Assembly: GCA_038060895.1 (NCBI GenBank)
Contig: JBBTCT010000019.1
Coordinates: forward strand, 20,322-53,206
Direction: 5' to 3'
DNA length: 32,885 bases
Source of the DNA: Planctomycetota bacterium
Lineage (GTDB): Bacteria > Planctomycetota > MHYJ01 > WSZJ01
Shown here: positions 3,557 to 32,098 of the stretch, in pieces
How the letters are laid out: each line of letters opens with the position of its first letter
How positions within the stretch are numbered: position 1 is the stretch's first letter
Program-made: the position numbers and the translations under genes
Notes under the pieces: generated by a model
Databases searched by the model: none
What the model saw: only the letters and a program-made list of their open reading frames with translations
Told to the model about the DNA's origin: nothing

Positions 3557-3721
3557 GCTATCCGGAACTCTGAGCGTGAGAAAAAATCGTCGCGCGCCAG
3601 GCTGCGTCGGCCTTAGGCATGGATTGTTTTGGGGCTTGAGGGCCAAAGGCCGACTCCGCCCGGCCCGCGACGGACCCGATTTGGTTCCCGCACCTGCACC
3701 GCTCCAGTATGCTCCGCCGCC

Positions 3722-5282: not shown

Positions 5283-5660
5283 AGGCGGCGGGAATCGAAC
5301 CCGCGTCCCAGAGAGCTTCAACCGGCACATCTCCGTGCGCACTCTGTGTTTTGTCGTCGCAACCGGAGTCGCCCACAGAGAGGCTCTTCCGGCCGCCAGG
5401 TCCGTTTTTTCCGTGGGCGCAGGGTAGTGGACCGGACACCCATTGCTCTACCTCACGCGCGGCGCTCCGCCCAGCCGGGCCGTCACCTTTTCAGGCAACG
5501 CACCTGCGTAAGGGTGGCTGGGAGGGCGTGACTGCAATTAAGCAGCCAGGTTGTACGCGGGAGTCGCGTGTACAAATGTGCCCAAGGTTTAACGAGGCCG
5601 ATGGGCGTCCTCGGCACGCAGTACCGGCATCCACGCCCCGGTCGAGACCATGGCGCCCCC
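5280..5660 (-). ncRNA. ssrA: Transfer-messenger RNA (tmRNA), one-piece
   Basis: 5' end GGGGGCGCCATGGTCTCGAC and 3' end GGACGCGGGTTCGATTCCCGCCGCCTCCA (T-arm). The acceptor stem GGGGGCG/CGCCTCC has the G3-U alanine determinant. The internal tag ORF ends LAA-stop. The terminal CCA is not encoded after the discriminator. Confidence 0.96.
5538..5567 (-). other. tmRNA proteolysis tag reading frame (A)ATPAYNLAA*
   Basis: GCG ACT CCC GCG TAC AAC CTG GCT GCT TAA, preceded by TTTGTACAC. The resume codon position is inferred. Confidence 0.8.
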
Positions 5661-10161: not shown

Positions 10162-10268
10162 ATTTCCGCTGCCCACAATACGGCCGCGACTTCGCCGTTG
10201 GTCTTTGCGGGGTAACTCCGCGCCACAGGAGACCCGCGGCAAACGTGCTAGACTTTGCCGCATCACCG

Positions 10269-16040: not shown

Positions 16041-16160
16041 GAGCGCGTGAAAAAAGCGGGCGACGGCGCGTGATCGGGTCTCGCGCCCCGCCGTCGGGCC
16101 TTTACGACGGCGGGTTGCGAGTCCCGATCGCGCGATGGCGCTCGATTTTTTCGCGCGCTC
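16041..16160. repeat. Long imperfect palindrome (56-bp arms, 8-nt loop)
   Basis: 16041-16096 and the reverse complement of 16105-16160 match at 46/56 positions without gaps, by manual alignment. Confidence 0.85.
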
Positions 16161-17905
16161 TATCGCGAACACTCTCCCAAACCGGCCGCCGCCGCGCTGA
16201 AAGGCTTGTCCTCGCCGTGGTCGTAGAAGAGCGACTCGTCCGCATTCTCGGTGGACGCCAGGTCGTTGAGCGCTTCCTTCACGCGCGACTTGTCCACGCG
16301 TCGCGAGAAGGCCCCGAAGTCCTCGGACTCCCTGCGTTCCGCGCGCCACAACTCCACAAGGCGCGACACGGCCTCAGGAACACGCTTCGCCGGAAGCTTG
16401 ATGGCGATGTTTCCGATTTGCGCGGCGGGGCCGACGGCGCCGCCCCAGTGGAGAAGCGCGTGCGGCATGTCGCGGCCGTTGACCGACTTCGTGCAGCCAT
16501 AAAGCCCGATGGGGGCGATGTGATGCTGGCCGCAGGAGTTCGGGCAGCCGCTGATCTTGATGCGGAGGCCGGGGACGTTGGCGAAGAGTGCGCGGTTGCG
16601 CTCGAGGTAGGCGATGATGGCTTCCCCGAGACCTTTGGAATTGGTGATGCCGAGGCCGCAAGTCGTGGTTCCGGGGCAGCTCGTGATGTCGAAAACGGAG
16701 TTCGCGTTCGGGTCGGCCAGGCCGAGCGCCGCGAGTTCTTTCCGGACCGCGGGCAGGTCCTGCCCTGCGACATAGCGCAGCACGAAGTTCTGCTCGTTGG
16801 TGATCCGCGCTTCCCCGCCGGAGTAACGCCGGGTGACGTCGGCGAAGCCGCGCAGGCGGATCGAATCGATGTCGCCGACCCGCACCCACGCCGTCACCGC
16901 GTAATACCCGGGCTGCTTCTGCGCGATCACGTTCGCGCGGAACCAGTCGGTGTCCACAAGGGTTGCCGGGGCTTCGCTCGGAGGACGGAGGCCTTCCGGG
17001 CTTCCGCTGAAGCGATGCACGTACTCGTTGAGATCGGGAAACGGCTTGAGTCGTTCGCCGCCGAGGACCTCCTTGAGTTCGCGCTCGTACTCCTCGCGGA
17101 AGCCGTCGATGCCGAGACGCATCATCACGTATTTCAGGCGCGCCCGTTTGCGGTCCTTGCGCTCTCCGGTCCGGTCGAAGACGCGCACGATCGCTTCCGC
17201 GCTCGCGCACAGATGCGTCGCCGGGAGAAAGCCGTGCAGCAACTGCGCCATGTGCGGCTGCGTGCCGAGCCCGCCGCCGACGCGCACCTCGAATCCGCGC
17301 TCGCGGCCGCGGATCCGCGCGATGCAGCCGATGTCGTTGATGGCCGCCTGCCCGGCGTCGTCGTCGCTTCCGGAAAACGCGATCTTGAATTTGCGCGGCA
17401 ACCCCTGCGTCTTCGGATGGCGCAGAAGGAACTCCGCGACCGCGTTCGCGTACGGCGTCACGTCGAACGCCTCCGCCGGGGAAACCCCCGCGAGCCCTTC
17501 GGCCGCGACGTTCCGGACCGCGTTGCCGCAGGCCTCGCGCGTCGTCATCCCCGCTTCCCCGAGCCGGCGCATGAAGTCCGGCACGCGTTCGAGCGGGACG
17601 TAGTGGATCTGGAAGTCCTGGCGGGTCGTGAGATGGATGGAGCCGCGGCCGAATTCCTGTGCCAGGTCGGCGGTGCGCTCGAGCTGGTCGGCGGAAGCGA
17701 TCCCGGCCGGGAGCTTGATGCGGACCATCTGCCAGGTGCCGCCCTGTCGCTGGCCGTAGATTCCGTGGACGAGGCGGAAGGGGCGCCAGCGTTCGTCGGG
17801 GAGTTCGCCCTTTAGGAATTTGTGCATGGCGTCCTCGAAGACGGCAATGTCTTCGTGGAAGGTGGGGTCGGTGAGGGGTCTGGACGTGATGGTGGAAGTG
17901 GTCAT
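16160..17905 (-). CDS. Siroheme nitrite/sulfite reductase hemoprotein (ferredoxin-dependent NirA/SirA type)
   Basis: GIYGQRQ, MVRIKLPAG, TTRQDFQ, CGNAVRN and LPRKFKIA. Siroheme/4Fe-4S ligands CPGTTTC and SGCPNSCGQH. Confidence 0.92.
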   Translation of the reverse strand: MTTSTITSRPLTDPTFHEDIAVFEDAMHKFLKGELPDERWRPFRLVHGIYGQRQGGTWQMVRIKLPAGIASADQLERTADLAQEFGRGSIHLTTRQDFQIHYVPLERVPDFMRRLGEAGMTTREACGNAVRNVAAEGLAGVSPAEAFDVTPYANAVAEFLLRHPKTQGLPRKFKIAFSGSDDDAGQAAINDIGCIARIRGRERGFEVRVGGGLGTQPHMAQLLHGFLPATHLCASAEAIVRVFDRTGERKDRKRARLKYVMMRLGIDGFREEYERELKEVLGGERLKPFPDLNEYVHRFSGSPEGLRPPSEAPATLVDTDWFRANVIAQKQPGYYAVTAWVRVGDIDSIRLRGFADVTRRYSGGEARITNEQNFVLRYVAGQDLPAVRKELAALGLADPNANSVFDITSCPGTTTCGLGITNSKGLGEAIIAYLERNRALFANVPGLRIKISGCPNSCGQHHIAPIGLYGCTKSVNGRDMPHALLHWGGAVGPAAQIGNIAIKLPAKRVPEAVSRLVELWRAERRESEDFGAFSRRVDKSRVKEALNDLASTENADESLFYDHGEDKPFSAAAAGLGECSR

Positions 17906-18286: not shown

Positions 18287-21200
18287 ATGAGCAACACGGC
18301 CACGCTTCAGCCCGGCATTCCCGGAATTACGTATCCCGATCTCTATGCGCCCGCGGCGCTGCAGCGGCTCCTCGACTTGTTCCATGCCGGAGTCGAACGC
18401 GCCGACCCGGCGCTCTGGAAAGCCTGGCAGCCCTACGCCGCTTCCAAAGGCGCGGGGTTCGGTGCGCCGGCAGTCTCCGAACTGCTGATCCGCATGGCAC
18501 CGCACGTCTCGAAGTTCGTTGCGAAACTGTTCGGCGTCGAGGAAGCGGCGGCAGAACTGCGCGCGAAGATCGCGGGAATGCTGCCGATCTACCTGTACAA
18601 GCGCGACTTCATCGGCCGGCGCGTCTTCAAGAAGTACTCGAAGGAGAATCCGCCGAAGCACGCGAAGGGCGTTCTGTCGCGCATGGGGACGGCGATCGTC
18701 GAGGTCTGGAACATCGACGCGAAGGAAGACCCGGAGCTGCGGTACGCGCGCGCTTCGCTCGACCTGGTCGCGATGGAGAAGAAGCCTGACGCCGAAGTCA
18801 TCGAGCTCGTGCGCCAGGCCATCGAAGCCGACGCTTCCGTTCCCGACGCGCAGGTCGTCGCCAAGGCGATTGAGATCATGGAGGCCTGGGCGTTCGTGCG
18901 CGGGTCCGACCCGGTCTACCGCACGGGAATCCGCGGCTGGGCCTCGTACCGGCAACCCGAGGACATGCACTGGCCCGACGACCTCGTCGAGCTGGTCCGC
19001 CCGAACGCCGCGCGCCCCGAGGAGATCGTCGGCCCCGAGCATCGCATGCGCAAACGCGACGGGTTCAAGCTGACCGACCCGCGCATGAACCCGAAGCAGG
19101 CGCTCGGCGAAGTCCACTATTGCATCCTCTGCCACCCGCGCGAGAAGGACTCGTGCTCGCGCGGCATGAAGGGCAAGGACGGGAAGAACGTTCCGAACCC
19201 GCTGGGCGTGCCGCTCGCGGGCTGCCCGCTCGAGGAAAAGATTTCAGAAGCGCACACTCTCAAGAAGGCCGGCGACGTCATCGGCGCCAACGCGATCGTC
19301 TGCGTCGACAACCCGCTCTGCGCCGGCACCGGCCACCGCATCTGCAACGACTGCATGAAAGCCTGCATCTTCCAGAAGCAGGAACCGGTGAACATTCCGG
19401 AAGCGGAGACCGCGACGCTCGTCGAGCTGCTCAATCTCCCGTGGGGATTCGAGATCTACACGTTCCTCACGCGCTGGAACCCGCTCAACGTGAAACGTCC
19501 GTGCGCGCTTCCGTACAACGGGCGCAATGTCCTCGTCGTCGGCCTCGGCCCCGCCGGGTACACGCTGGCGCACCACCTCGCGAACGAAGGATTCGGCGTC
19601 TGCGGGATCGACGGTCTCAAGATCGAGCCGCTTCCGGAAGAGCTGGTCGGAAGGCCCGGCAAGCCGCCGAAGCCGATCCGCGACTGGAAGCCGCTGGTGG
19701 ACGAGCTGGACAACCGGGTGCTGCTCGGATTCGGCGGCGTGAGCGAATACGGGATCACCGTGCGGTGGGACAAGAACTTCCTCAAGGTCGTCTACCTCAC
19801 GCTGCTGCGACGCGAGACGCTGCGCATGTACGGTGGGGTGCGCTTCGGCGGCACGATGCTGCTCGAGGACGCTTGGAAGCTCGGATTCGACCACGTCGCG
19901 ATTGCGGCGGGCGCAGGGCGGCCGACGATCATCGACATGAAGAACAATCTCATCCGCGGCGTGCGGAAGGCGAGCGACTTCCTCATGGCGCTCCAGTTGA
20001 CCGGCGCCTACAAGGACAACGCCCTCGCGAACCTCCAGATGCGGCTGCCCGCGATCGTGATCGGCGGCGGCCTGACGGCTGTTGACGCGACGACCGAGGC
20101 CGCGGCGTACTACCCCCGACAGGTCGAGAAGTTCCTCGACCGCTGGGAGAAGCTGGTCGCGAGCGGGAAGAAGGACGAGGAACTCTGGGCGCGCTTCGAC
20201 GAGGAAGAGAAGATCATCGCGAAGGAGTTCCTCGACCACGGGAAAGAAATCCGCAACGAACGCCGCCGCGCGAAACAGGACGGGAAGGAGCCCGACTTCG
20301 CGAAGCACGTGCGCAAGTGGGGCGGGGTCACGATGGTCTACCGGAAGTCGATCCAGGACTCCCCCGCTTACAGGGTCAACCACGAGGAAGTCATCAAGGC
20401 CCTCGAGGAAGGAATCTCGGTCCTCGAAAAGCACAACCCGATCGAATGCCACCCGGATCGCTTCGGCGCTCTCGATGCAGTGACGTTCGAGAAGTCGCGC
20501 CAGGAAAACGGGAAGTGGATCGACACGAAGGAATTCGTGAAGCTCCCCGCGCGGAGCCTTTTCGTCGCGGCGGGGACGACGCCGAACATCATCTACGAGA
20601 AGGAACATCCCGGGACGTTCAAGCTCGATGCGAAGAAGAAGTTCTTCCAGGCGTTCAAGATCGAAGGCGGCAAGTTGACGCCCGCCGACGGCCCTGGTGC
20701 CGGCGGGTTCTTCACTTCCTATGAGAAGGAAGGAAAGGTCGTCTCGTTCTACGGCGACAACCATCCCGTCTACGCCGGGAGCGTCGTCAAGGCCATGGCC
20801 TCGGCGCGCGACGGCTACGGCCACGTCTCAAAGCTCTTCGAAGCAGATCTCGCGAAGCTCGACGCGGCAAAGCAGCCGGAGCGCGACGCGAAGTGGAAGA
20901 AGACGTGCGCGACGCTCGACGACGGGCTCTGCGCCACCGTCCACGAGGTCATCCGGCTCACGTCGAACATCGTCGAAGTCGTCGTCCGCGCGCCCTTCGC
21001 CGCCGCCCGCTTCGAGCCCGGCCAGTTCTACCGCCTGCAGAATTTTGAGGTGGATGCGCCGGAGCTGGAAGGCACGAAGCTGATGATGGAAGGGATCGCG
21101 CTGACGGGCGCCTGGACCGACAAGCCGAAAGGCCTGCTCTCGATGATCATTCTCGAGATGGGCGGCAGTTCACGGCAGTGCGCGATGCTGAAGAAGGGCC

Positions 21201-21901
21201 AGCGCGTTGTCGTCATGGGCCCGACCGGCGCGCCCACGCATATCCCGCACGGGGAAGACGTCCTCCTCGCCGGCGGAGGCCTCGGCAACGCCGTCCTGTT
21301 CTCGATCGGCAAAGCGCTCAGAACCGCCGGCAACCGCGTCCTCTACTTCGCCGCCTACCGCTCGCCGAAAGACATGTACCACGTTGACGACATCGAGGCC
21401 GCCAGCGACCAGATCATCTGGTCCGTCGATACCGGCGACATGATCAGCGCCCGCCGCCCCCAGGACCGTTCCTTCCGCGGTAACGTCGTGCAGGCGATGA
21501 CGGCGTACGCGAAAGGCGAACTTGGCGAGAAGGTCGTCCCCTTCGAAAGCGTGAAGCGGATCATTGCGATCGGCAGCGACCGGATGATGGCTGCGGTGAC
21601 GAAGTCGCGGAAGGAAGTCCTCGCGCCCTGGCTGAAGGAGCACACCGGCGTCGCTTCGATCAACAGCACCATGCAGTGCATGATGAAGGAGGTCTGCGCG
21701 CAGTGCCTTCAGAAGCACGTGGACCCGGTGACGGGCAAGGAAACCGCTCCCGTCTTCTCGTGCTTCAATCAGGACCAGCCCATGGACTGCGTCGACTGGA
21801 AGAACCTGAATGAGCGGCTGAAGATGAATTCGGTACAGGAGAAGCTCGGGAACATGTGGCTGGACATGATCCTTGCGAAGCATCCGCTCGCAAAGGTGTA
21901 G
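18287..21901 (+). CDS. Fused FAD/Fe-S oxidoreductase: GltD/NfnB-like N-terminal part and FNR/NfnA (PyrK)-like C-terminal part
   Basis: Fe-S Cys cluster CILCH...SC...GCP...C...CNDCMKAC, FAD motif VVGLGPAG, and NAD(P)H motif IGGGLTAVD...YRKS. Then PGQFY, GPTG, GGGLGNA and the [2Fe-2S]-type CMMKEVCAQC...C. Confidence 0.85.
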   Translation: MSNTATLQPGIPGITYPDLYAPAALQRLLDLFHAGVERADPALWKAWQPYAASKGAGFGAPAVSELLIRMAPHVSKFVAKLFGVEEAAAELRAKIAGMLPIYLYKRDFIGRRVFKKYSKENPPKHAKGVLSRMGTAIVEVWNIDAKEDPELRYARASLDLVAMEKKPDAEVIELVRQAIEADASVPDAQVVAKAIEIMEAWAFVRGSDPVYRTGIRGWASYRQPEDMHWPDDLVELVRPNAARPEEIVGPEHRMRKRDGFKLTDPRMNPKQALGEVHYCILCHPREKDSCSRGMKGKDGKNVPNPLGVPLAGCPLEEKISEAHTLKKAGDVIGANAIVCVDNPLCAGTGHRICNDCMKACIFQKQEPVNIPEAETATLVELLNLPWGFEIYTFLTRWNPLNVKRPCALPYNGRNVLVVGLGPAGYTLAHHLANEGFGVCGIDGLKIEPLPEELVGRPGKPPKPIRDWKPLVDELDNRVLLGFGGVSEYGITVRWDKNFLKVVYLTLLRRETLRMYGGVRFGGTMLLEDAWKLGFDHVAIAAGAGRPTIIDMKNNLIRGVRKASDFLMALQLTGAYKDNALANLQMRLPAIVIGGGLTAVDATTEAAAYYPRQVEKFLDRWEKLVASGKKDEELWARFDEEEKIIAKEFLDHGKEIRNERRRAKQDGKEPDFAKHVRKWGGVTMVYRKSIQDSPAYRVNHEEVIKALEEGISVLEKHNPIECHPDRFGALDAVTFEKSRQENGKWIDTKEFVKLPARSLFVAAGTTPNIIYEKEHPGTFKLDAKKKFFQAFKIEGGKLTPADGPGAGGFFTSYEKEGKVVSFYGDNHPVYAGSVVKAMASARDGYGHVSKLFEADLAKLDAAKQPERDAKWKKTCATLDDGLCATVHEVIRLTSNIVEVVVRAPFAAARFEPGQFYRLQNFEVDAPELEGTKLMMEGIALTGAWTDKPKGLLSMIILEMGGSSRQCAMLKKGQRVVVMGPTGAPTHIPHGEDVLLAGGGLGNAVLFSIGKALRTAGNRVLYFAAYRSPKDMYHVDDIEAASDQIIWSVDTGDMISARRPQDRSFRGNVVQAMTAYAKGELGEKVVPFESVKRIIAIGSDRMMAAVTKSRKEVLAPWLKEHTGVASINSTMQCMMKEVCAQCLQKHVDPVTGKETAPVFSCFNQDQPMDCVDWKNLNERLKMNSVQEKLGNMWLDMILAKHPLAKV

Positions 21902-21906
21902 GGCCC

Positions 21907-22944
21907 CTACCTGGTCCCAATCTCATACCCGTAGATCCCCGTCCACTCCTTCATCGCCTTCTCCTGCTCCTCCGAGAGCCTCAACGTCTCCTTCATCCGC
22001 TTCTGCACCGACACCATCAACTCCGCCTCCGCCACAGCCGTCGTCCAGTCGTTCACTTTCTCTCCCGCCGCCTTCTTCTTTTCGGCCTCCGCCTGGATCT
22101 CGTCGTACGCACGCATGTACTCGCCGACGATCGGGGCAATCGAAGCGGCCTGGGTGTCGTCGAGCTTCAGGGCGGACTTCCACTGGCCGCCGATCTGCGC
22201 CGCAACGCTCTCGCGGTCTCCGGAGACGGAGTGCCTCGGCGCCATGGAAGGGATGTCGTTGAACATGTCCATGCCGTCGAGCATCTCGATCTGGTCGGTG
22301 CGAAGCACCCCGCGGATCCCCAGGAACCCGCCTCCCGAGATCTCCAGCATGTCGAGGCTCCGCTCCATCCCGGTCAGTGACTCACGCCCTGCGACGTATT
22401 CCATCCAGCCTTTGTCGGCGGCGGCCATCAACGCCTGGATCTTCGCCATCTGCGCCGCGTCGGGAGGCAGGTCGGAGCCCTCGAGGACGCCGAGCAGCAG
22501 CCCCAGCATCCCCTCCGGAGACATCATCGCCTCCTCCATCGACACGCCGTACTTCTTCGCCGCGTCGGAGAGAAGGGAGAAGAAGTCGCCCATCAGCTCG
22601 GTCTCTGCCGCAGAGCGCTCGCTCTTGTCCTTCATCTGCTCTCGCAACTTGTAGACCTTCGCGCCGAGTTCCTTCCATGTCGGGCCCTTCCTGGCGGGCG
22701 GCTTCACGGCTGCATCGCCGGACCCGCCGGACTTTTCGAGCGAAGCGAGCTCGCCGCGCAGGCGCTCGCCCTCCGACACGAGCGCTCTGAGTTCCGGATC
22801 CGGGGAGGGCTCGCTCTTCGAAGTGGGAGACCCCGGCGCTGCCGGCGCCGGTGAATCCGGCGATCGGTGCCACGCGAAGGCACGGTAGGCCCCTGCGGCC
22901 AGGACGGCACCGACGACCGTTCCGAGCAGAATTCCCTTCAGCAT
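21907..22944 (-). CDS. Hypothetical membrane-anchored helical protein, paralog 6 of tandem array
   Basis: MLKGILLG TM anchor, coiled coil, EEAMMSPEG, WKSALKLDDTQ and LRLSEEQEKAMKEW. SD GGAG. Confidence 0.85.
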   Translation of the reverse strand: MLKGILLGTVVGAVLAAGAYRAFAWHRSPDSPAPAAPGSPTSKSEPSPDPELRALVSEGERLRGELASLEKSGGSGDAAVKPPARKGPTWKELGAKVYKLREQMKDKSERSAAETELMGDFFSLLSDAAKKYGVSMEEAMMSPEGMLGLLLGVLEGSDLPPDAAQMAKIQALMAAADKGWMEYVAGRESLTGMERSLDMLEISGGGFLGIRGVLRTDQIEMLDGMDMFNDIPSMAPRHSVSGDRESVAAQIGGQWKSALKLDDTQAASIAPIVGEYMRAYDEIQAEAEKKKAAGEKVNDWTTAVAEAELMVSVQKRMKETLRLSEEQEKAMKEWTGIYGYEIGTR

Positions 22945-22954
22945 CGAACCGCTC

Positions 22955-24043
22955 CTACTTTCCAGGATCAGACGTCGGCGTGGCCGGTCCGCGCCAGTGG
23001 TTGTACGTGGTTGACCAGTTTTTGAGCGCCAGCTTCTGCTCGTTCGTCAGCGTGAACGAGGAGGCGATTTTCTGCTGCGCGGCGATCTGCGCTTCGAGCC
23101 GCGCCAGCGCCATCTTCGTCTCCCCTCCCTTGATTCCCGCGGCCGTGTCCTTCTGGAACGCCGCCGTCGCCTCGTCGATCGTCCGGATGTATTCCTCAAC
23201 GATCGGTTCGAAGGACTTCGACTGCGACTCTTCAAATTGCAGCGCCTTGGCCCACTGCCTGGAGAAATTATCGCGAATCACCTCGGGGGTGCCGCTGGCG
23301 AAGTGGGAGGCGGTTCCCATGCTCCCCATCATTCCCATTCCCATCGCCTTGAGTGCATTCGCGGCCTCGGCATGCTCCGGTCCCAGTTGGGCGATGAACG
23401 CTTCCGAAGTGCCCAGTCCGTTGCGCATCATTTCGAGCCGTTGTTCGAGCGTCGTGCGGCCTTCCTTGTCTTTCTGAAGCGACTCGAATCCGGCGGTCAT
23501 GTCTGCGGTGAATTTTTCGAGCGCCTGGCGCTCCGCGTCCGTTAGCGGCGGCTCGGAGTCATCGAGGGCGGCGGCCAGGAGCGCCGGCAGTCCATCGGGA
23601 GTCAGCAGCGCCTCGCCGAGCGAAACTCCGCGCTCCTTCGCGATCTTGCCCAGTAGCCCGACCATCTCGAGCATGAGGTCCTGCGATCCCGCCATGCCGT
23701 TCTTCGGATCGTCCTTGATCGCTTTGAAGAACGCGATCAAGCCCTTGGCGATCTTTCCCCATCGATTCGCGGACTTCCCCGGCTTTGCGGCCAGGGCCGC
23801 CTCGGCTGCCTTGGCCTGCGCGAGTTTCAGGTCCGAGATCCGTTTGAGGGTCGCCTCGTTTTCAGCCTTCAGCCGGGCGACCTCTGCGGCGTTGTCCGCA
23901 GGAGGGGAAGCGGGATTCCCGGCCGACCGCTCGGCCGTCTCAGGCGAGGGGGCTCCGGGCGCACTTCCCCGGTCGAGGAGCTTGCAAATGACCAGGGTCA
24001 ACGCAGCGCTGAGGAAAAGTCCGATCACGAAACCGCGGGCCAT
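22955..24043 (-). CDS. Hypothetical membrane-anchored helical protein, paralog 5 of tandem array
   Basis: Start at MARGFVIG (24043) by homology to the neighbours. GEALLTPDG, WAKALQFEESQ and FTLTNEQKLALKNW. Confidence 0.85.
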   Translation of the reverse strand: MARGFVIGLFLSAALTLVICKLLDRGSAPGAPSPETAERSAGNPASPPADNAAEVARLKAENEATLKRISDLKLAQAKAAEAALAAKPGKSANRWGKIAKGLIAFFKAIKDDPKNGMAGSQDLMLEMVGLLGKIAKERGVSLGEALLTPDGLPALLAAALDDSEPPLTDAERQALEKFTADMTAGFESLQKDKEGRTTLEQRLEMMRNGLGTSEAFIAQLGPEHAEAANALKAMGMGMMGSMGTASHFASGTPEVIRDNFSRQWAKALQFEESQSKSFEPIVEEYIRTIDEATAAFQKDTAAGIKGGETKMALARLEAQIAAQQKIASSFTLTNEQKLALKNWSTTYNHWRGPATPTSDPGK

Positions 24044-24216
24044 GAAGGAGGGCTCCGAGAAGGGGTAAGCGAGACTCTGCAAAGCGGGGGCCGATTCAGC
24101 CGGCCTCGGCCCATCGCGAAACCGGCCGCAACTGTACGGCGCGTACACGCGGAGTCAGTGTATTCGGAATCCAGGGGTTGATGTTCGGTGGGCAAGGGCA
24201 AGTGCAAGGGAAACGG

Positions 24217-25317
24217 CTACTTTCCTGCTGGCGGCGGCTCGAATACGTTAACCCCGTACACATCTCCCCACCCCTTCATCGCCTTCGCCTGCTCTTCCGT
24301 CAGCCTCGCCGTCTCCGCCAGCTTCTTCTGCGTCTCGATCATCAATGCCACCTGCCCCTTGTATTGCTCGCTCCAGGAAATCTCTTCGCCGGCCTGCTTC
24401 CTCTTCCAGACCGCATTGTTGATCTCCTGCGCCTTCGCCATGAACTCGTCTACGATCGGGCCGATCGCCCGCTCCTGGATCGGGTCGAGATTCAGCACCT
24501 CGGTCCACTTCCCCGTCAGCTCCTTCGTCACCTTCTCGCGCGATCCTTCAATCCACGTCGAAGGCCCGCCGTCGTCGTGAACTTCGAACATCTCGTACGC
24601 CCTGGCGATCGCCGCCTGCTCCGGCGTCAGGCCGGCCAGCATCGCCCCCATCGTCTTTTGCATCGCTTCCCCTCGCGCGACGCGCTGCTCCAGCTTCGAC
24701 AGGTCGTCGCGTGAAGCGCGGTACGCCTTCCATGCCTCCGCGCCTCCTTCTCGAAGCGCCTCGAGCCGCGCCAGTTCCCCGGGAGACGGAGGCGGGTCGG
24801 ATTGCGCGAGGACCTCGAGCAGCAGTTTTGTCAATCCGTCGGGAGACATGAGCGCCTCTTCGAACGGCATTCCCAGGCGCCGCGACAATTCGGTGACGGC
24901 CGCAAACATCTCAAGCTGCAGATCCTTGCAGTCGTCCGGCCAGTCGTCCCACTTCTTGCCGCGCACCTTTTCGCGGACCTTCGCGAGCTTCGCGGCGATC
25001 TCGCGCCAAGTCTTGGCCGGTGAGGAAGCGGCCGATCCACTGGTGGCCCCCGACTTTGAGATGTCCTCGACCTTCCGGCGAAGCGCCGCATTTTCGGTGC
25101 GAAGGGTCTCTGTCTCCTGGCGGGCCGTCGCGATTTCGGCTCGTAGGCGTTCAGCCTCCGCCCCGGCGGCGGAACTCCCGGAGGATTCCGCCGTCGTCGA
25201 TCCGCCGCCGCCGGACGCGAGTGTAGCCCGTCCCGACTCCACTGCCCTGAGGAGGACCGCCGACAACAGGGCGCCCGCGATCAGCCCTGCCAGCCCCCAT
25301 CCCGCCCGGACGCCCAT
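24217..25317 (-). CDS. Hypothetical membrane-anchored helical protein, paralog 4 of tandem array
   Basis: GLAGLIAGALL anchor, EEALMSPDG, WTEVLNLDPIQ and ARLTEEQAKAMKGW. Confidence 0.85.
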   Translation of the reverse strand: MGVRAGWGLAGLIAGALLSAVLLRAVESGRATLASGGGGSTTAESSGSSAAGAEAERLRAEIATARQETETLRTENAALRRKVEDISKSGATSGSAASSPAKTWREIAAKLAKVREKVRGKKWDDWPDDCKDLQLEMFAAVTELSRRLGMPFEEALMSPDGLTKLLLEVLAQSDPPPSPGELARLEALREGGAEAWKAYRASRDDLSKLEQRVARGEAMQKTMGAMLAGLTPEQAAIARAYEMFEVHDDGGPSTWIEGSREKVTKELTGKWTEVLNLDPIQERAIGPIVDEFMAKAQEINNAVWKRKQAGEEISWSEQYKGQVALMIETQKKLAETARLTEEQAKAMKGWGDVYGVNVFEPPPAGK

Positions 25318-25330
25318 CGAGAACCTCTTC

Positions 25331-26398
25331 CTAATCGGTAATCGTGATTTCCCACGCGTGGCCCAGCGACTTCAGCGCCTTCTGCTGGTCCTCAGTCAGG
25401 TTCACCGACTCCTTGATCCGCTTTTCGACGCCGATCGCCAGATCTGCTCTCGCGAGTGCTTTCTGCACGTCCGAGAGAGGCTGCCCGGCCGCCGCTTTCG
25501 CGTCCCAGTCCGCTTCCATCGAGTCGTACTGCCGGAGGAAATCGCTCACGAGCGGCCTGAGCGGCGCGTCGCCGCCTTCCTGAATATTCAGCGTCCGTTT
25601 CAACTCTTCCAGCAACTGGCCTTCCACCTGGTCGCGCTTCCCCGTCAGCGGCCAGGTATCCACGCGCGCGGCTCCGTCCGACCACATCCGTCCGGTCTTG
25701 AACCAGTCAACCTGCTCCGGCGTGAGCTGCCCGCGAATCCCCGCCATCGCGTCCCAGACGAGCGCCGCGCCGTTGCGGCGCCACTCCAGGGTGCTCAGCT
25801 CGTCCTTCCGCGCACTGAGCGCCTTCCACGTTTCCTCGGCTTTCGCGACTTCGGCCTGCGCACGGAGAAGCGCCTCGGGGTCGAGCGGCGGCTCCGCCCC
25901 CTCGAGCACGGCGAGCATGAGCATCGGCGAGCCGTACGGCGACATCTCGAACTCGTTCAGGTTGAACCCCGACTCCTCCATCAGCTCCTTCGCGATCTCC
26001 ATGAACTGCAGCATCAGGTCGCGGTACTCCTCGCTGTTCTCGTTCTGGATCTCGTCCAGCTTGTCCTTGAGGAGGAAGAGCTTCTTCGCCATCGGCGACC
26101 AGGGATTCGTGAATTTCTTTGCGTCCACGGGCTTCGGCGAGCCCTTGTCCTTCTTCGCCGCTGCGATTCTTCCGTCCAGTCCCTTCAATTCCTCTTCCAG
26201 CGATGCCCTCTCCGCATCCAGTTTCGCCAGCTCGCCTTTCAGCGCCTCGGCCTCGGCGTTGGCGGGTCCTGCCGCTGTTGCGGAGGCGGATTTTGAAGCG
26301 GAGGCCGAGGCGTCGTCGCGTCGCGCTTCCACCGCGCGGAAAAGCACGAACGCCAGCAGGGCGCCAATCACGAGCCCGATGGGAAGTCCCTTCAGCAT
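25331..26398 (-). CDS. Hypothetical membrane-anchored helical protein, paralog 3 of tandem array
   Basis: MLKGLPIGLVIGALL anchor, NEFEMSPYG and VNLTEDQQKALKSL. SD AGGAG. Confidence 0.85.
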   Translation of the reverse strand: MLKGLPIGLVIGALLAFVLFRAVEARRDDASASASKSASATAAGPANAEAEALKGELAKLDAERASLEEELKGLDGRIAAAKKDKGSPKPVDAKKFTNPWSPMAKKLFLLKDKLDEIQNENSEEYRDLMLQFMEIAKELMEESGFNLNEFEMSPYGSPMLMLAVLEGAEPPLDPEALLRAQAEVAKAEETWKALSARKDELSTLEWRRNGAALVWDAMAGIRGQLTPEQVDWFKTGRMWSDGAARVDTWPLTGKRDQVEGQLLEELKRTLNIQEGGDAPLRPLVSDFLRQYDSMEADWDAKAAAGQPLSDVQKALARADLAIGVEKRIKESVNLTEDQQKALKSLGHAWEITITD

Positions 26399-26410
26399 GT
26401 CCTGCTCCTG

Positions 26411-27514
26411 TTATTCCGGCGGCGGGGGCGGTTCGTCCGTGTCGGACGGCTGCGGATTGTTATCCACCCAGAACTGGTAGGTCGTGCCCCAGTCGCGAAG
26501 CGCCTTCTGCTGCGCGGGCGAAAGGGACAGGGAGGAAGCCATCGCCTGCTGGGCCTTGATCTGGGCCTTGACCTGCTCGCGCTGGATCTTTTTCCAGGCG
26601 TTCCGGTCGCCGGAACTCGACTCGGACTTGAACATCTCCTGGGCGCTCTGGTAGTCCTTCATGTAGGTGTCCACGTAGGGACCCAGCAGCGCCTTCTGCG
26701 ACTCGTCGAATTTCAGCGCCTTTGCCCACGCGTCCGTCAAGTTCGACGTCACGGCTTCCTTCGTGCCGTTGGTCCAGTGATTCCCGCCGCCCATCCCCTC
26801 CGACATCATCCCGAACATCTCGAAGCTCTTGGAGCCGTCTTTCTGCGCGTCCGACATCGTACCGAGCACGCTCTGCATGTAGCCGTCGGCGAGTTCCGAG
26901 ATCGCGACCTTCTTCTCGAGCTTTGACATCGCCGCGTCGTCTTCACGGATTTTCTGCCAGTCTTTCGAGTACTTGTCGATGAGCGCGTCGACCTCGGCGA
27001 GCTGCTCAGGCGTGGCCGGGGGCTCCCCGGTTTCGAGCAGCGCACGCAGCAGCGCGGGCAGCCCTTCCGGCGAAGACATCGCCTCGTCCATGGCGACGCC
27101 GCGCTGCTTCGCGATCCGGGCGATCAGGGCCATGAAGTCAAGCTGCGCGGCCTGCAGCTCCTTGCTGTCGCGGTCCTTGTCCTCCGTCGCCCCGAACGCC
27201 TTCGCGAGCAGCGGCGCGAGTTCCTTCCATGACTTTTCGCCCGCCTTTTTCTTTTTCTTCTTCCCGCCGCCCTGCTCCTTCTTCTCCATCGAAGCGAGCT
27301 CGCCCTTCCGGTCTGCAAGCGACTTGCGAAGCGCCTCGTTGCCCGCCTTGAGCGCGTCCGCCTGGGACCTCAGGGAAGCGGTGTCGGGAGCCACGTCCGC
27401 AGGAGCATCGCCCTTGTCGCGCGCGTCGTCCGCCTTGTGCGTCGCCATCGCCTTCAGGACGATTGCCGTCACCAGCGCTCCGGCGACCAGGCCGGCCAGG
27501 ATTCCCTTCAGCAT
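26411..27514 (-). CDS. Hypothetical membrane-anchored helical protein, paralog 2 of tandem array
   Basis: MLKGILAGLVAGALV anchor, DEAMSSPEG, WAKALKFDESQ and LSLSPAQQKALRDW. SD GGAGAGG and an upstream TAGAAT. Confidence 0.85.
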   Translation of the reverse strand: MLKGILAGLVAGALVTAIVLKAMATHKADDARDKGDAPADVAPDTASLRSQADALKAGNEALRKSLADRKGELASMEKKEQGGGKKKKKKAGEKSWKELAPLLAKAFGATEDKDRDSKELQAAQLDFMALIARIAKQRGVAMDEAMSSPEGLPALLRALLETGEPPATPEQLAEVDALIDKYSKDWQKIREDDAAMSKLEKKVAISELADGYMQSVLGTMSDAQKDGSKSFEMFGMMSEGMGGGNHWTNGTKEAVTSNLTDAWAKALKFDESQKALLGPYVDTYMKDYQSAQEMFKSESSSGDRNAWKKIQREQVKAQIKAQQAMASSLSLSPAQQKALRDWGTTYQFWVDNNPQPSDTDEPPPPPE

Positions 27515-27595
27515 CGAGCCTCTCCCATTTGCGCCCCGCGCGCATTCTACGGCGTTGGATGCCGCGAATCGCGGCGAATCACGGCGCTCCGCTCT

Positions 27596-27751
27596 TCAGG
27601 CGACCGTCAGGACGAGAATGACGGCAACGACAATCGAGCCCAGGACGAGGAGCCCCATGACTCCCGCAAGGACGAACCCGAAGGGAAAGGCCCTTGCGCC
27701 AAGGCGCGCCGCACGAAATCTCTGCCCCAGGATGAACCGGATGTGCATCAC
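27596..27751 (-). CDS. Small (about 51 aa) membrane protein with a C-terminal hydrophobic helix
   Basis: Strong SD GGAGG 8 nt before GTG 27751, just after the stop of paralog 1. Basic N-terminus, then GFVLAGVMGLLVLGSIVVAVILVLTVA. Confidence 0.6.
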   Translation of the reverse strand: MMHIRFILGQRFRAARLGARAFPFGFVLAGVMGLLVLGSIVVAVILVLTVA

Positions 27752-27765
27752 GGTGAGTTCCTCCG

Positions 27766-28833
27766 TTATCTGCCCGCGTCGGTCGCATCGAACGAGTATT
27801 CCGTTCCCCATTCCTTCAGCACCTTCGCCTGCTCCTCCGAAAGCCGGATGGTCTCGGCGAGCTTCTTCTGCGCGGCGATCATCGCCGTAAGCCCCGCCGC
27901 TTTCCGCTCGCGCTCCGTCACCTTGAGCCCTGCCGCCTCGCGCCGCGCGAACTCGTCCTTCGCCGCCTGCACGTCGCGCATGAACTCGTCCACGACCAGC
28001 CCCATCGCCGGCCTCTGCGACTCGTCCAGGCGGAGATCCTTCGCCCAGCTCGACTTCAGAGATTCCGCCACCTGCACTGCGGACCCGCCGAAGGACGCGT
28101 GCCGCCCTCCGAAATTCAGGTCGGCATCGAAGAGCTGCATGTCGTCGGCGATCTGCCTCGCTTCGCTACCGAACGCCTCGCGCAGGGAACCGATCGTGCG
28201 CCCCTGCAGTTCGAGCAATTCCCGCTTGCGCTCGTACGACATCAGCCCGTCGCGCTTCCCAAGGTAGTCCGTCCACGCGTCCTGGCCGGCGGCCATGGCG
28301 GCTTCGATGGCCTGCTGCTGCGCGGCGTCCGGCCGGATTCCCGCCGCCTCCATGATCGAGAGCAGGAACGCCGGCATCGCATCCGGGCACGCCGCGATCT
28401 CGTCGAGATTCACGCCATGTTCCTTCGCCAGCTTCCCGAGAAGCCCCAGGAATTCCATCAGCGCCTGCTGCGACTCCGGGGAATTTCCCGCGTCCTCGCC
28501 CTTCATCTTGTCCTTCATTTGATAGAACGCCGCGCCCACGTCTTTCCAGCGGCTCCCCTTCGCGGCTACCGTGGACTTCCCGGCCTTTGCCGCCGCGCTC
28601 GCTTCGAGATCGCCGACCTTTTTCTGAAGCGCTTCCTTCTCGCTGCGCTCGTCCGCCAGGGCCTTCTCGAGCCGGGCGACTTCCTCGGTCCCGGGCTTGA
28701 GCCGGGGATCCTGCTCCCCGATTTTCGCGCCCACTTCTTCGAGCCGCTTTCCCTGGTTCCGATCGACCAGGCGCACTCCTGCGGCGCCGATCAGCGCGCC
28801 GAAAACCAGTCCGAGGACGATGCCCTTCGCCAT
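27766..28833 (-). CDS. Hypothetical membrane-anchored helical protein, paralog 1 of tandem array
   Basis: Start MAKGIVLG (28833) with SD AGGAG. DEIAACPDA, WAKDLRLDESQ and IRLSEEQAKVLKEW. Confidence 0.85.
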   Translation of the reverse strand: MAKGIVLGLVFGALIGAAGVRLVDRNQGKRLEEVGAKIGEQDPRLKPGTEEVARLEKALADERSEKEALQKKVGDLEASAAAKAGKSTVAAKGSRWKDVGAAFYQMKDKMKGEDAGNSPESQQALMEFLGLLGKLAKEHGVNLDEIAACPDAMPAFLLSIMEAAGIRPDAAQQQAIEAAMAAGQDAWTDYLGKRDGLMSYERKRELLELQGRTIGSLREAFGSEARQIADDMQLFDADLNFGGRHASFGGSAVQVAESLKSSWAKDLRLDESQRPAMGLVVDEFMRDVQAAKDEFARREAAGLKVTERERKAAGLTAMIAAQKKLAETIRLSEEQAKVLKEWGTEYSFDATDAGR

Positions 28834-28922: not shown

Positions 28923-29315
28923 ATGCCAGAGCGAGAAACGATCCGCAAAGCCATTGACGTCGCGCTTCAGGCCGCGGCCTACGACCAGCTTGGCCCGGCC
29001 GGCACCGATCTCGCGGCCGGTGCGCGTCGCGAGCTCGCAGCGCTGACCGACGGCTGGCCGGATGCCTCGCGCGCCCGTCTCACGGCCGCGGCCCTCGGCC
29101 TCGAGCGCGACCGCCACCAGCTCGACCGCGGGCGCAATCACTTCATCAAGGACTTCCGCCTGCGCCACGGCGCGAACGCGCGTGAATACTCGCTCGAAAT
29201 CCGCTCTCAGATGGAAGCCGGGATGGCCGACTTCAACCGGCGCAAGTCCCTGGCGATCGACGAAGCTGCCGCCCGGCTTCTTGAGGAACTCCAGACGTCG
29301 GGCCATCGCGCATGA
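28923..29315 (+). CDS. Hypothetical helical protein
   Basis: 130 aa with protein-like composition. TAGAAT lies 8 nt before the ATG, and the stop overlaps the next start (ATGA). Confidence 0.7.
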   Translation: MPERETIRKAIDVALQAAAYDQLGPAGTDLAAGARRELAALTDGWPDASRARLTAAALGLERDRHQLDRGRNHFIKDFRLRHGANAREYSLEIRSQMEAGMADFNRRKSLAIDEAAARLLEELQTSGHRA

Positions 29316-29842
29316 TTGCGCTCCGCTGCACCTGCGGGAAGAAGCTGCAGGTTCCCGACCGGATGGCGGGGCGGACGGGCAAGTGCCCGGACTGCGGCGA
29401 GCCGGTGCCCGTCCCGCGCGCGGGGTTCGTGGACGAGGACGGCGAAACGGTCGCTTCCGACAACTCAGCCCTCGAACTCGGGGACGATCCCGTACAGCCG
29501 AAATCGCGGCCTCCCGCGCCGGCGGCGGCCGCGGCAGCCGCCTCCTCCGCGCGCAGGGGAAAAGCCGGCAACGCCCCTTCGATTGCCTGTCCCCGCTGCG
29601 GAACCGCCTACGGTGTCGAAGCGATTTTCTGCCCGCAGTGCGCCGTGGATCTGAGGACCGGAAGGCCCGTGGCGGGGGTCGTGCCCGGGCACATGAGCGC
29701 CCCCCGGGCGGTCCGCTCCGAGTGGCCCATTCTGCTGGTCATGAGTGCGTTCTTCCGGCGCCCCGTCGTCCGCCTCGTCCTCGTGGGGTTGCTCGCCGTC
29801 GCCGCGTACTATGCGTACCGTCACCTTGTGGCCCCGAAATAA
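29312..29842 (+). CDS. Double zinc-ribbon protein with a C-terminal membrane anchor
   Basis: CTCGKKLQVPDRMAGRTGKCPDC and CPRCG...FCPQCAVDLRTG, then the hydrophobic LVLVGLLAVAAYYAY. Confidence 0.8.
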   Translation: MIALRCTCGKKLQVPDRMAGRTGKCPDCGEPVPVPRAGFVDEDGETVASDNSALELGDDPVQPKSRPPAPAAAAAAASSARRGKAGNAPSIACPRCGTAYGVEAIFCPQCAVDLRTGRPVAGVVPGHMSAPRAVRSEWPILLVMSAFFRRPVVRLVLVGLLAVAAYYAYRHLVAPK

Positions 29843-29950: not shown

Positions 29951-32098
29951 GTGATCGAAATGACGTGCACGTGCGGCAAGCAGATCAAGGTTCCCGACAC
30001 GATGGCGGGCAAAAAAGGCAAGTGCCCGGGGTGCGGATCCGTGATCGAGATTGCAGCCGCTGCGCCGGCGCCGAAAAAGGACGACCTGCTGCTGGAACTG
30101 GACGATCCCAAGCCCAAGGCGCGGCCGATTGAAGCGCTGATTCCGCCGGTCCAGGAGCTACCGGACGCCAAAGGGCCGAAGAAGAAGGCAGGTCCGCGGA
30201 TTTCCAGCGGCGACCTGCTGGGGGACGACAATCCCCACGCCGCGAAGAAGCGGGCCACGGCGCCTCCGAGCACGGGCGAAGGAGCGACTGGCGCTGGAGG
30301 TTCAGAAGGAAAAATTGCCTGCCCTCAGTGCGGCGAGATGTACACGTCTGACACGTTCTTCTGCATGAAGTGCAAGATTGACCTCTCCACCGGAAAGGCA
30401 TTCACCGGGCTCGTCGGGAAACAGTCGAAAACCAACCGCCCCGGCGACGAGTACGACCCCGAAATGCCCTTCTGGAAAATCACGCTCGGGATGCTCTACA
30501 AGCCCGCTTCCATGATGCAGTACTTCGCAGGCTGGTTTGAGCGCAAGGACGTTCAGGTCCAGATGATCGGCTTCTACGTCCTGTCCTTCCTGGCGATCGC
30601 GATCGCAGCGGGCGCGAAGTCGGGGAAAGTGCGGTCGATGGAGCAGAAAGGTCCGACCCCCGAGGAGCAGATCGCAAAAATCGAGAACGATGCGGGGACG
30701 TACACGCCGCACATTTTTGAAGGTTGGACGAAGAGCGGGACGGACGGGCTGGAAGCCAACGACAAGAACCCGTTCGTTTTCCGGATCAACTCGCCAGTCG
30801 GACCAGTCGAAGCGACCGACACCTTCACGGTGAAGTTCGCATTCTGCGAGCCGGGGCCGGGCAAGGGGATCCTGGGTGACGCGTATGTGGTCGCGACAGA
30901 GAACTGGAAGGGGAAGCGACAGGAGTATGCGGAATGGGTCAAGGCGCGTTCCCTTGCCCAGCCGGGCGACTACGAAGCGGACCTGGACGCGGAAATGGCG
31001 AATGGTTCCAGCTACGAGATCATTGTCTACGAGAAGGGGGTCGACCCCTTTGAATCGGGGGTCAAGGCGCGCTCGACGGTCCATGTCGCCTGGGCGTCCA
31101 AGCCCGGTTGGGCCAAACAGGTCTACGCCGATCTCGGCGAAACGGATGCGAAGAAGAAGTCCACGATCGAAGAAGAGGCGGCGAAGCTCGAGAAAAAGAA
31201 GGGAACGCTGATCGCGCCGACGGACTGGAAACGGGCGTACGACTCCAGGACCGGCCGCACCGGGCAGATCGGCGAGTTTTACTGGAAGGTGGAGAATCCG
31301 CCCCAGGATGTTGAGGCGGGGAAGAAGTTCCTGGTCACGATTGAGATGGTCCTTGAGGGCGAGGACAAGAAGCCCGGCGCCCCGATCGACGCCGAGGTAT
31401 ACGTCGCGACTTACGGCGGCTGGGCGGACGACGACGAAGAAGGCGGCGCTGAGAATCCGAAGGCCAATCAGACATCGCCGGGGAAGTACAGCTGCGAGGT
31501 CACGGGCGTCTACGACCGCGCCACCCTGGTGAATTTCATGTTCTGCCCGAAGGGCCAGAAGCTGACCTACAACAATCAACAGGGTGAATTGCTGGTGAGT
31601 TTCCCGACGCGCCCCGGCTGGGCAAAGACCGTGGTCGAGAAGGAGCGCAAGGAATACGAGAAGGAACACGAGAAGGACAAGCCCACGACGGTTGCGGGAA
31701 AAGCCACCAAGGCCCTCATGGGCGGCGCCGCGATCTTCGGGGCCGTTCTCGCCAACATCCTTGGCCTCGCCATCACCGCCGGCGTCTGCACGCTCACCGC
31801 AAGGCTGTTCGGCGGCGGCGGCAGCTTCCTTCTCTTGCTCTGCACGCTCGCGTATGTGACCGGCTTCACCAACATGCTCGAGCTCATTGTCTTCTTCGTC
31901 CCCGCGAAGGAAGTCGACTGGGTTGCGTGGGTCGTCGGCGTCATCACCGCCCTCGCCCACCTGCTCGCGCTGATGAAGGTCTTCGATCTCGACCTCATGA
32001 CCGCGCTTCTGGCTTCCTTCCTCGCCCGGGCCATCGTGCTCTTCGGCGTTGGCTGGCTGATTCTCGCGATCATGGGCACGTCCATGATGATCGGTTAG
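29951..32098 (+). CDS. Double zinc-ribbon, Yip1-like membrane protein with a large duplicated extracytoplasmic insert
   Basis: CTCGKQIKVPDTMAGKKGKCPGC and CPQCG...FCMKC. Yip1-like segments GMLYKPASMM plus TM1, and C-terminal TMs with ARLFGGGGSF...LAY. GTG start with SD GAGGAG. Confidence 0.75.
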   Translation: MIEMTCTCGKQIKVPDTMAGKKGKCPGCGSVIEIAAAAPAPKKDDLLLELDDPKPKARPIEALIPPVQELPDAKGPKKKAGPRISSGDLLGDDNPHAAKKRATAPPSTGEGATGAGGSEGKIACPQCGEMYTSDTFFCMKCKIDLSTGKAFTGLVGKQSKTNRPGDEYDPEMPFWKITLGMLYKPASMMQYFAGWFERKDVQVQMIGFYVLSFLAIAIAAGAKSGKVRSMEQKGPTPEEQIAKIENDAGTYTPHIFEGWTKSGTDGLEANDKNPFVFRINSPVGPVEATDTFTVKFAFCEPGPGKGILGDAYVVATENWKGKRQEYAEWVKARSLAQPGDYEADLDAEMANGSSYEIIVYEKGVDPFESGVKARSTVHVAWASKPGWAKQVYADLGETDAKKKSTIEEEAAKLEKKKGTLIAPTDWKRAYDSRTGRTGQIGEFYWKVENPPQDVEAGKKFLVTIEMVLEGEDKKPGAPIDAEVYVATYGGWADDDEEGGAENPKANQTSPGKYSCEVTGVYDRATLVNFMFCPKGQKLTYNNQQGELLVSFPTRPGWAKTVVEKERKEYEKEHEKDKPTTVAGKATKALMGGAAIFGAVLANILGLAITAGVCTLTARLFGGGGSFLLLLCTLAYVTGFTNMLELIVFFVPAKEVDWVAWVVGVITALAHLLALMKVFDLDLMTALLASFLARAIVLFGVGWLILAIMGTSMMIG

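Follow-up and report, generated by a model that had tools for sequence, protein, structure and literature searches.

The array described here comprises six co-oriented genes on the minus strand at positions 21907–28833 of a 32 885 nt stretch of the Planctomycetota contig JBBTCT010000019.1 (hereafter, the window), and encodes six diverged paralogous proteins of 345–367 aa. Together with a small open reading frame (ORF) behind the first copy, the array is best explained as an operon of seven genes from an uncultured lineage of Planctomycetota, in the order copy 1, a 50 aa protein and copies 2–6. By analogy with known helical envelope proteins, we infer that the operon may encode a periplasm-facing, probably oligomeric, membrane-tethered set of Spy/CpxP-like chaperones or sensors, a reading of function that we favour tentatively, as plausible rather than probable.

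The six proteins are homologous to one another. Every one of the 15 pairwise BLASTP comparisons was significant (E values from 5.6e-37 to 9e-6, with 23–33 % identity, mostly across 230–360 residues), compared with a best match of E=0.008 among 120 shuffled queries. The likeness is therefore not compositional, and the preliminary description of this DNA, which had called the genes paralogs and had named compositional bias as the alternative, is upheld. A six-way alignment contained 15 invariant columns, including (in copy-1 numbering) W96, G140, E145, P150, E201, G250, L267, V281, G302, L331 and Q335. The motifs W..LA, G....E....P, LE, G..E.V...L, P.V and L(S/T)xxQ, all listed in that description, match invariant columns; its ‘PP’ motif is not invariant.

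The copies are also old and individually retained. Related loci (L001–L006), all on contigs of Planctomycetota metagenome-assembled genomes (MAGs), were found with an alignment of paralog-4 orthologs, which show 57–83 % identity, come without exception from metagenomes or Planctomycetota MAGs, and are annotated as ‘hypothetical protein’ where they are named. L001, L002 and L005 have all six family genes in identical order; L003 has six in order, the sixth being cut by the contig end, and L006 has four, of which the fourth is cut in the same way. L004 (1–13389) carries only orthologs of copies 4–6, directly behind unrelated genes for an FtsX-type permease and an S9-peptidase-like protein, and so the array may be separable into units, or copies 1–3 may be located in another part of that genome. 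In a maximum-likelihood tree of 35 rows, from which two fragments shorter than 250 aa were excluded, the six positional ortholog groups p1–p6 (6 rows in p1) each formed a clade with 100/100 support, and copies 2 and 5 (subfamily A) were sisters, set apart from copies 1, 3, 4 and 6 (subfamily B) with 98/95 support. An origin of the array by duplication of a three-gene unit was also tested, and only the split of copies 2 and 5 from the other four was supported; the pairings 1+4, 3+6, 3+4 and 4+6 were neither shown nor rejected (approximately unbiased test, P=0.057–0.19). The ratio of non-synonymous to synonymous substitution rates (dN/dS, Nei–Gojobori method) for each copy was 0.15–0.22 against L001, the nearest relative (dS 0.61–0.79), and 0.24–0.41 against L002, at dS values (0.72–1.06) near saturation. 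Given the fully supported ortholog groups and the low dN/dS, the copies are old, non-redundant and under purifying selection, in agreement with the earlier view of them as old, intact and maintained paralogs.

Along the minus strand, the array consists of paralog 1 (P0001, 27766–28833, 355 aa), paralog 2 (P0002, 26411–27514, 367 aa, the sister of paralog 5 in the tree), paralog 3 (P0003, 25331–26398, 355 aa, by BLASTP the most diverged copy), paralog 4 (P0004, 24217–25317, 366 aa, the copy that was modelled), paralog 5 (P0005, 22955–24043, 362 aa) and paralog 6 (P0006, 21907–22944, 345 aa, the copy richest in methionine), each delimited as an ORF. The start of paralog 1 at 28833 is consistent with ortholog ORFs of 355 aa, and that of paralog 5 at 24043 with ortholog ORFs of 362–363 aa. 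The small ORF begins 17 nt after the stop codon of paralog 1 and is separated by 81 nt from paralog 2; the gaps between the remaining copies are 12 nt (2 to 3), 13 nt (3 to 4), 173 nt (4 to 5) and 10 nt (5 to 6). These distances bear out the tightly spaced sub-blocks perceived previously (1 plus the small ORF, 2-3-4 and 5-6). The G+C content at third codon positions of the six copies (79–86 %) is similar to that of other genes in the window (65 % G+C overall). A scan for sigma-70 promoters returned 0 sites, and 7 terminator-like sites were found against 6.4 expected.

The 251 nt gap between copies 1 and 2 holds the seventh gene. An ORF of 47–51 codons stands directly behind the copy 1 stop codon in all six loci that hold the gap (the window and five related loci), starts 7–10 nt after a GGAGG-like purine-rich stretch, and in every case encodes the motif (F/Y)PxGF..A..MGL; the small ORF that had been noted after copy 1 is thus a real gene, conserved in the alignment of the intergenic DNA. 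In the window it likely extends over 27596–27748 (minus strand, 50 aa), rather than being the 71 aa ORF that begins at 27811. Its product has a basic N-terminus followed by one hydrophobic helix and matches no Pfam family, and a tblastn search with the 71 aa version gave no match. After the stop codon of the small ORF and before paralog 2, at 27544–27582 on the minus strand, the sequence GTGA and the stretch GCGGCATC are invariant in six aligned sequences. A TAGAAT box lies 3′ of this motif in the window, L002 and L005, and is replaced by CAGAGT in L006; L003 differs, and the L001 piece in the alignment ends before the position of the box. The scan for sigma-70 promoters made no call at this conserved motif, which may serve genes 2–6 as a promoter inside the array or as an RNA element.

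No curated family names the six copies, in line with the initial impression. No Pfam model reached its cut-off on any of them; NCBIfam gave no family for four of the six, and only coiled-coil noise far below cut-off for P0003 and P0004; and PADLOC returned a single JetC-like coiled-coil match on P0003 (E=0.0038) and nothing on the other five. As that P0003 match was all that PADLOC offered, nothing argues for a role in defence, and the earlier suggestion of immunity proteins is without support. The family is small, at approximately 180 clusters: a six-copy profile searched against 1 835 955 588 representative proteins matched 184 clusters at E≤0.001, 90 at E≤1e-10 and 56 at E≤1e-30, and every named member seen was from Planctomycetota. 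A word-indexed search with a 69-row profile returned almost only paralog-4 orthologs.

All six proteins share one architecture. A Kyte–Doolittle scan placed exactly one hydrophobic segment in each copy, within residues 1–28, and 3–5 residues precede the membrane helix in the window proteins. Paralog 4 was modelled by AF2 from a 69-row alignment with a mean predicted local distance difference test score (pLDDT) of 89.3 and a predicted template modelling score (pTM) of 0.74, 273 of its 366 residues scoring at least 90. The N-terminal hydrophobic helix of this protein (residues 5–28, 25234–25305; helix 6–33 in the model), a putative signal anchor or uncleaved signal peptide, is followed by a long single helix predicted to form a coiled-coil-like stalk (residues 48–88, 25054–25176), which is flanked by low-confidence linkers (38–45 and 93–96) and whose region was matched only by coiled-coil proteins in PDB sequence searches. 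Beyond the stalk lies a compact head (104–358) modelled as eleven helices and two short strands (253–258 and 353–358), in which the 10-residue blocks of residues 101–360 have mean pLDDT values of 94–98, apart from one at 85. The head begins with an N-terminal helical sub-domain (residues 100–171, 24805–25020; model helices 104–171) that carries the W..LA and G....E....P.G motifs, its blocks between residues 101 and 170 reaching 95–98. Two LTXXQ-like modules complete it: module 1 (residues 172–248, 24574–24804; PPSPGEL ... LTPEQ) and module 2 (residues 249–360, 24238–24573; LDPIQ ... LTEEQ), the latter closed by the two short strands. When modelled alone, module 2 gave a pLDDT of 92.4 and a pTM of 0.85, with strands at positions 5–10 and 105–110 of the piece. 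The arrangement proposed in the preliminary description, in which an N-terminal hydrophobic helix leads through a linker and a coiled coil to a helical domain, therefore holds, and its helical head is confidently modelled.

The two modules resemble each other. By hhalign, residues 172–248 aligned with residues 272–357 at a probability of 94.7 % and an E value of 5.7e-8, compared with 0.027 for the reversed sequence, 0.059 for the best of 20 column shuffles and 0.006–0.37 for other segments. The repeated unit reads as an L/P-x-x-x-Q turn, two successive helices, an L-T-x-x-Q turn and a further helix. The N-terminal sub-domain is not a repeat of either module; by hhalign it reached E values of just 0.0059 with module 2 and 0.053 with module 1. 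The head is thus predicted, from sequence profiles and the AF2 model, to be an all-helical domain of approximately 260 residues in which an N-terminal helical sub-domain precedes two tandem copies of one ancestral unit.

The repeated unit points to a remote relationship with the LTXXQ family (PF07813) of Spy, a Pfam family or clan to which we take CpxP and ZraP also to belong; on profile evidence, we regard this relationship as probable, with considerable room for doubt. Among the 24 736 Pfam models scanned, PF07813 matched 19 of 69 relatives at E≤0.01, against 2 of 69 for the next-best family, and its gathering cut-off of 24.3 bits was passed by three relatives from outside the window (P0020, 27.1 bits; P0073, 29.4 bits; P0089, 25.9 bits). 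The window copies scored 21.8 bits (P0004, residues 207–238), 19.3 bits (P0006, 253–310) and 16.2 bits (P0002, 262–339), and the LTXXQ matches fall collinearly on either module. In module 2 of P0004, LDPIQ (277–281) and LTEEQ (339–343) stand around helices 286–308 and 315–336, and in module 1 PSPGEL (approximately 177–182) and LTPEQ (230–234) stand around helices 179–205 and 208–228. Two L-T-x-x-Q-like motifs spaced by a helical hairpin are therefore present, the canonical form being confined to the second motif of each module; in the last motif, conservation of L339 and Q343 is 90 % or higher across 69 sequences. When aligned with Escherichia coli Spy by hhalign, the family profile gave an E value of 4.4e-4 (probability 33.5 %, residues 271–348 against Spy 51–139) with both LTXXQ turns in register, and module 2 alone gave 1e-4 (probability 57.5 %, residues 273–347 against Spy 53–138), compared with 0.017 for reversed Spy and 0.054 for the best of 30 shuffles. 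Two Spy/CpxP clusters were fourth and fifth among the ten matches listed by an ESM Atlas structure search, with a TM score of just 0.42.

A number of results weigh against such a kinship. No window copy reaches the PF07813 cut-off (the best being 21.8 against 24.3 bits), and LTXXQ does not match P0001, P0003 or P0005 at E≤1. Module 2 scored 0.025 against CpxP and 0.033 against ZraP, not clearly better than the respective shuffle minima of 0.021 and 0.064, and a small Spy/CpxP/ZraP profile gave only 1e-3 to 3e-3 at probabilities of 11–19 %, this being a poor profile whose Spy sequences are at least 89 % identical among the matches listed. A head-only profile searched against PDB sequences with hmmsearch found nothing below E=0.068, Spy and CpxP being absent even at E≤10, and the six-way and 69-way profiles returned coiled-coil and transmembrane noise only. 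Foldseek gave 0 PDB matches at E≤0.001 with either the full model or module 2, and the 50 matches listed include no chain of Spy or CpxP; the most probable match of module 2 was the Salmonella VirG-like protein 5io8_B (probability 0.63, TMt 0.52), to which Spy itself aligned collinearly at a non-significant E value of 0.57. Lastly, the array heads are acidic (D+E 13.7–18.4 % against K+R 10.7–14.7 %), unlike Spy and CpxP, which are basic proteins.

These data can be read instead as describing a new helical envelope scaffold unrelated to Spy/CpxP, in which the LTXXQ-like turns would be convergent helix caps and the proteins would build a structural planctomycete envelope assembly. The confident model, with no PDB fold match at E≤0.001 and a head-only profile with no PDB sequence match, would suit a scaffold, as would the narrow distribution of 184 clusters with all named members in Planctomycetota, and the strict one-to-one retention of six copies and a small membrane subunit would suit a fixed stoichiometry. 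We nevertheless consider a scaffold unlikely, as LTXXQ is the sole recurrent Pfam match and is passed at cut-off by three relatives, the Spy match runs collinearly through both motifs and beats its controls by a factor of more than 100, and Spy/CpxP clusters appear among the Atlas structure neighbours. The Spy/CpxP likeness suggested by the preliminary description stands in so far as the PF07813 match recurs and the LTXXQ-like unit is duplicated; it is weak in that no window copy passes the cut-off. The same description spoke of an undescribed system, which fits the lack of any family model naming the copies and would overstate the case should the distant tie to LTXXQ be genuine: the array would then represent a new architecture within a known superfamily.

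Distant relatives of the array proteins carry the helical head together with signalling domains. Nine of 45 longer or more distant representatives scanned have N-terminal extracytoplasmic function (ECF) sigma domains (P0100, P0109, P0133, P0144, P0147, P0148, P0156, P0163 and P0164), two have FecR (P0090 and P0106, the former also with zf-HC2), and a tenth sigma fusion (P0285) came from a separate profile search. The fusions are approximately 550–625 aa long, the head following the sigma or FecR part and then a membrane helix; the order in the sigma fusions is sigma2-sigma4, one membrane helix, coil and helical head. With a profile stripped of the membrane helix and coil, and with E values scaled to the whole library, five of the ten sigma fusions still matched at E≤1e-3 (3.1e-10 to 3.9e-5), as did both FecR forms (1.2e-16 and 5.4e-9), so that the homology of the head holds without the coil and membrane helix in 7 of 12 fusions.

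The fusions also bear on the orientation of the head. One hydrophobic region separates sigma from head in four of five sigma fusions scanned, and a cytoplasmic sigma domain joined through one membrane region to the head would place the latter outside the cytoplasm; we infer that the heads of the array proteins likewise face the periplasm. This orientation is less easily squared with the two FecR-type fusions, which have two hydrophobic segments and would hold the head inside if both span the membrane, or with the charges flanking the hydrophobic segment, which are ambiguous for topology. The FecR forms may be run-on gene calls, a family-like Met-x-Lys-Gly start lying just before the second segment.

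The same fusions raise the alternative that the heads serve mainly as sensors or regulators in envelope signalling and not as chaperones. The stand-alone copies, which lack a cytoplasmic part, would on that account bind to signalling proteins in the membrane, for instance the sigma-fused relatives, and adjust how these are released or how active they are, as CpxP does with CpxA and ZraP with ZraS. The position of the head behind ECF sigma or FecR domains, with homology that outlasts removal of the coil, speaks for a sensor, and there is precedent in PMC6737893, where CpxP is described as having a Spy-like structure, inhibiting CpxA via its periplasmic domain and being titrated by misfolded proteins, and where the title of a cited reference describes ZraP as both a chaperone and a ZraSR repressor. 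The six window copies themselves have no sigma or anti-sigma domain (Sigma70_r2/r4, zf-HC2 or RskA-type) by Pfam at E≤1, and no sigma, anti-sigma or histidine-kinase gene stands beside the array in the window; the sole nearby kinase gene (9927–14324) is approximately 7.6 kb away with four unrelated genes between, and six conserved copies would be a large number for a regulator that is purely accessory. A purely sensory or regulatory role is, in our judgement, rather unlikely, though it is the most probable of the rivals to a tethered chaperone set.

The suggestion that the copies form a hetero-oligomeric complex was addressed by co-folding copy 5 (residues 50–362) with copy 6 (residues 45–345), which was graded ‘weak support’ at a score of 0.39, the best of three controls scoring 0.00. 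Runs agreed in at least 48 % of contacts, and the partner pLDDT was at least 80. In calibration, 116 of 157 solved complexes and 2 of 215 mismatched pairs attained the mark, and among these only 18 of the 157 solved complexes, along with both of the passing mismatches, did so at scores of 0.60 or below; these counts hold only roughly here, as custom alignments were used. Two features of the method count against reading more into the model: co-folding is blind to hetero- as opposed to homo-association, and models of this type pair coiled coils readily. The prediction raises the odds of association only a little, and the earlier suggestion gains from it in respect of association and not of hetero-association, which co-folding does not separate from pairing of like copies. 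As homologous heads often pair, the result is compatible with sensor modules.

The heads are Met-rich, as had been observed at the outset: methionine makes up 3.8–7.8 % of residues from position 101 to the end, the highest value being that of paralog 6, against 2.0 % in seven other proteins of the window (4651 aa). This 2- to 4-fold enrichment could suggest periplasmic metal binders or buffers, for example of Cu(I) or Ag(I) through methionines, in the manner of the metal-linked branch of the LTXXQ superfamily, where we take CnrX to be placed with ZraP. A cation-efflux gene of the cation diffusion facilitator (CDF) family at 9226–10161 in the window would fit such a role, as would the membership of ZraP in a zinc-responsive system (the title of a reference in PMC6737893). 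Histidine and cysteine are nearly absent, at 1–3 and 0–1 per protein; no methionine, histidine or cysteine is among the invariant columns of the six-way alignment; PF13801 (Metal_resist) does not match any copy at E≤1; and the CDF gene lies approximately 11.7 kb away, with unrelated genes between. Methionines also matter for the chaperone role of Spy, according to PMC12503329, and metal binding as the main function appears very unlikely.

Our preferred reading, of a membrane-tethered Spy/CpxP-like chaperone or sensor set, would work as follows. Each large protein would be held at the cytoplasmic membrane by its single N-terminal hydrophobic helix, with the flexible linker and coiled-coil stalk projecting the helical head. 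Two modules in one chain would replace the homodimer of Spy and CpxP, and the six specialized copies would associate via stalks or heads, the stalks bringing copies together. The assembly would be an ATP-independent binder of unfolded or mislocalized envelope proteins that holds its clients, reports on them, or both, and the methionine enrichment would fit a pliable client-binding surface, as it could also fit metal binding. A point against this model is that no stress regulator, protease or envelope quality-control gene adjoins the array in the window. A more elaborate version, which we think distinctly unlikely, is a fixed-stoichiometry machine confined to this planctomycete lineage, in which six tethered Spy-like subunits and the 50 aa membrane subunit form one periplasmic assembly, holding damaged envelope proteins and reporting to single-chain transmembrane ECF sigma factors with the same head; if true, it would amount to an envelope system for quality control and signalling of a kind not known before, its chaperone and its sensor being paralogs.

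Comparison with known systems shows how far the analogy extends. Spy, a periplasmic chaperone that works without ATP and has two LTxxQ motifs, is made as a soluble 161 aa precursor and forms a cradle-shaped homodimer (PMC4791398). Both Spy and the array proteins are all-helical and have a helical hairpin bounded by two L-T-x-x-Q turns, with motifs in register over module 2 and Spy 53–138; the array proteins would be extracytoplasmic, as Spy is, and the methionines that matter in Spy have a counterpart in the Met-rich heads. The array proteins differ in having two modules per chain, preceded by a membrane helix, a coiled coil and an additional helical sub-domain, in the closure of module 2 by two short strands, and in their acidic heads. 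CpxP and ZraP are, as described in PMC6737893, small helical periplasmic client binders that also damp a membrane sensor, and the ECF sigma and anti-sigma fusion relatives of the array heads suggest a comparable tie to signalling. The two are encoded beside their own two-component systems, whereas no such partner adjoins the array. In the CnrYXH ECF system, CnrX combines an N-terminal membrane anchor with a helical-hairpin periplasmic head that talks to the anti-sigma factor, and senses metals via histidine and methionine ligands. By this general description CnrX would be the nearest known analogue of an anchored LTXXQ-like head with an ECF link, from which the array differs in its lack of conserved histidine or cysteine, its six paralogs and the absence of an adjacent anti-sigma gene. 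The distant fusion relatives share their architecture with ECF sigma factors that have fused C-terminal transmembrane extensions, such as the ECF52 type (PMC5826349); the six window proteins, by contrast, have no sigma or anti-sigma domain.

To our knowledge, envelope stress handling in Planctomycetota is almost unexplored, and our literature search found no paper on LTXXQ, CpxP or Spy proteins in Planctomycetes/Planctomycetota. If the remote link holds, the Spy/CpxP superfamily gains membrane-tethered members and internally duplicated, single-chain ‘pseudo-dimer’ heads, as well as a strictly conserved six-paralog operon and a tie to transmembrane ECF sigma factors. The family also supplies a helical head whose model is confident and for which the PDB holds no significant neighbour, in approximately 180 clusters that have no Pfam or NCBIfam model.

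The flanks of the array are syntenic in the related loci. One flank comprises a divergent 130 aa gene together with zinc-ribbon genes and a Yip1-domain protein; the other comprises a 1204 aa oxidoreductase and a sulfite-reductase-like gene. Because these genomes are close relatives, little can be read from the synteny about function. In the window, the divergent side is a trio of plus-strand genes at 28923–29315, 29312–29842 and 29951–32098. The first encodes the 130 aa protein, which matches no Pfam family, gave no usable lead in an Atlas search, and stands beside the array in all five loci that hold this flank; the second encodes a zinc-ribbon protein and the third a 715 aa membrane protein with a zinc ribbon and a Yip1 domain, the N-termini of these two being paralogous. 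On the other side, the gene for the 1204 aa protein (18287–21901, plus strand), whose only Pfam match is Pyr_redox_2, is convergent with the array and ends 5 nt from the stop codon of paralog 6; the nitrite/sulfite-reductase-like gene (16160–17905, minus strand) adjoins it, and both are syntenic in L002 and L005.

Further from the array, a Ser/Thr protein kinase gene (9927–14324, plus strand) encodes up to 1465 aa, and its true start probably lies further downstream because the first start overlaps the CDF gene. A cluster at 477–4708 encodes CotH-kinase-domain, VTC-domain and DUF4282 proteins, the gene calls being uncertain because ORFs overlap on both strands. Lastly, the window opens with a partial SmpB gene (3–467, plus strand; Pfam E=1.4e-55) and carries a full-length transfer-messenger RNA gene at 5277–5660 on the minus strand (Rfam RF00023, 127.4 bits).

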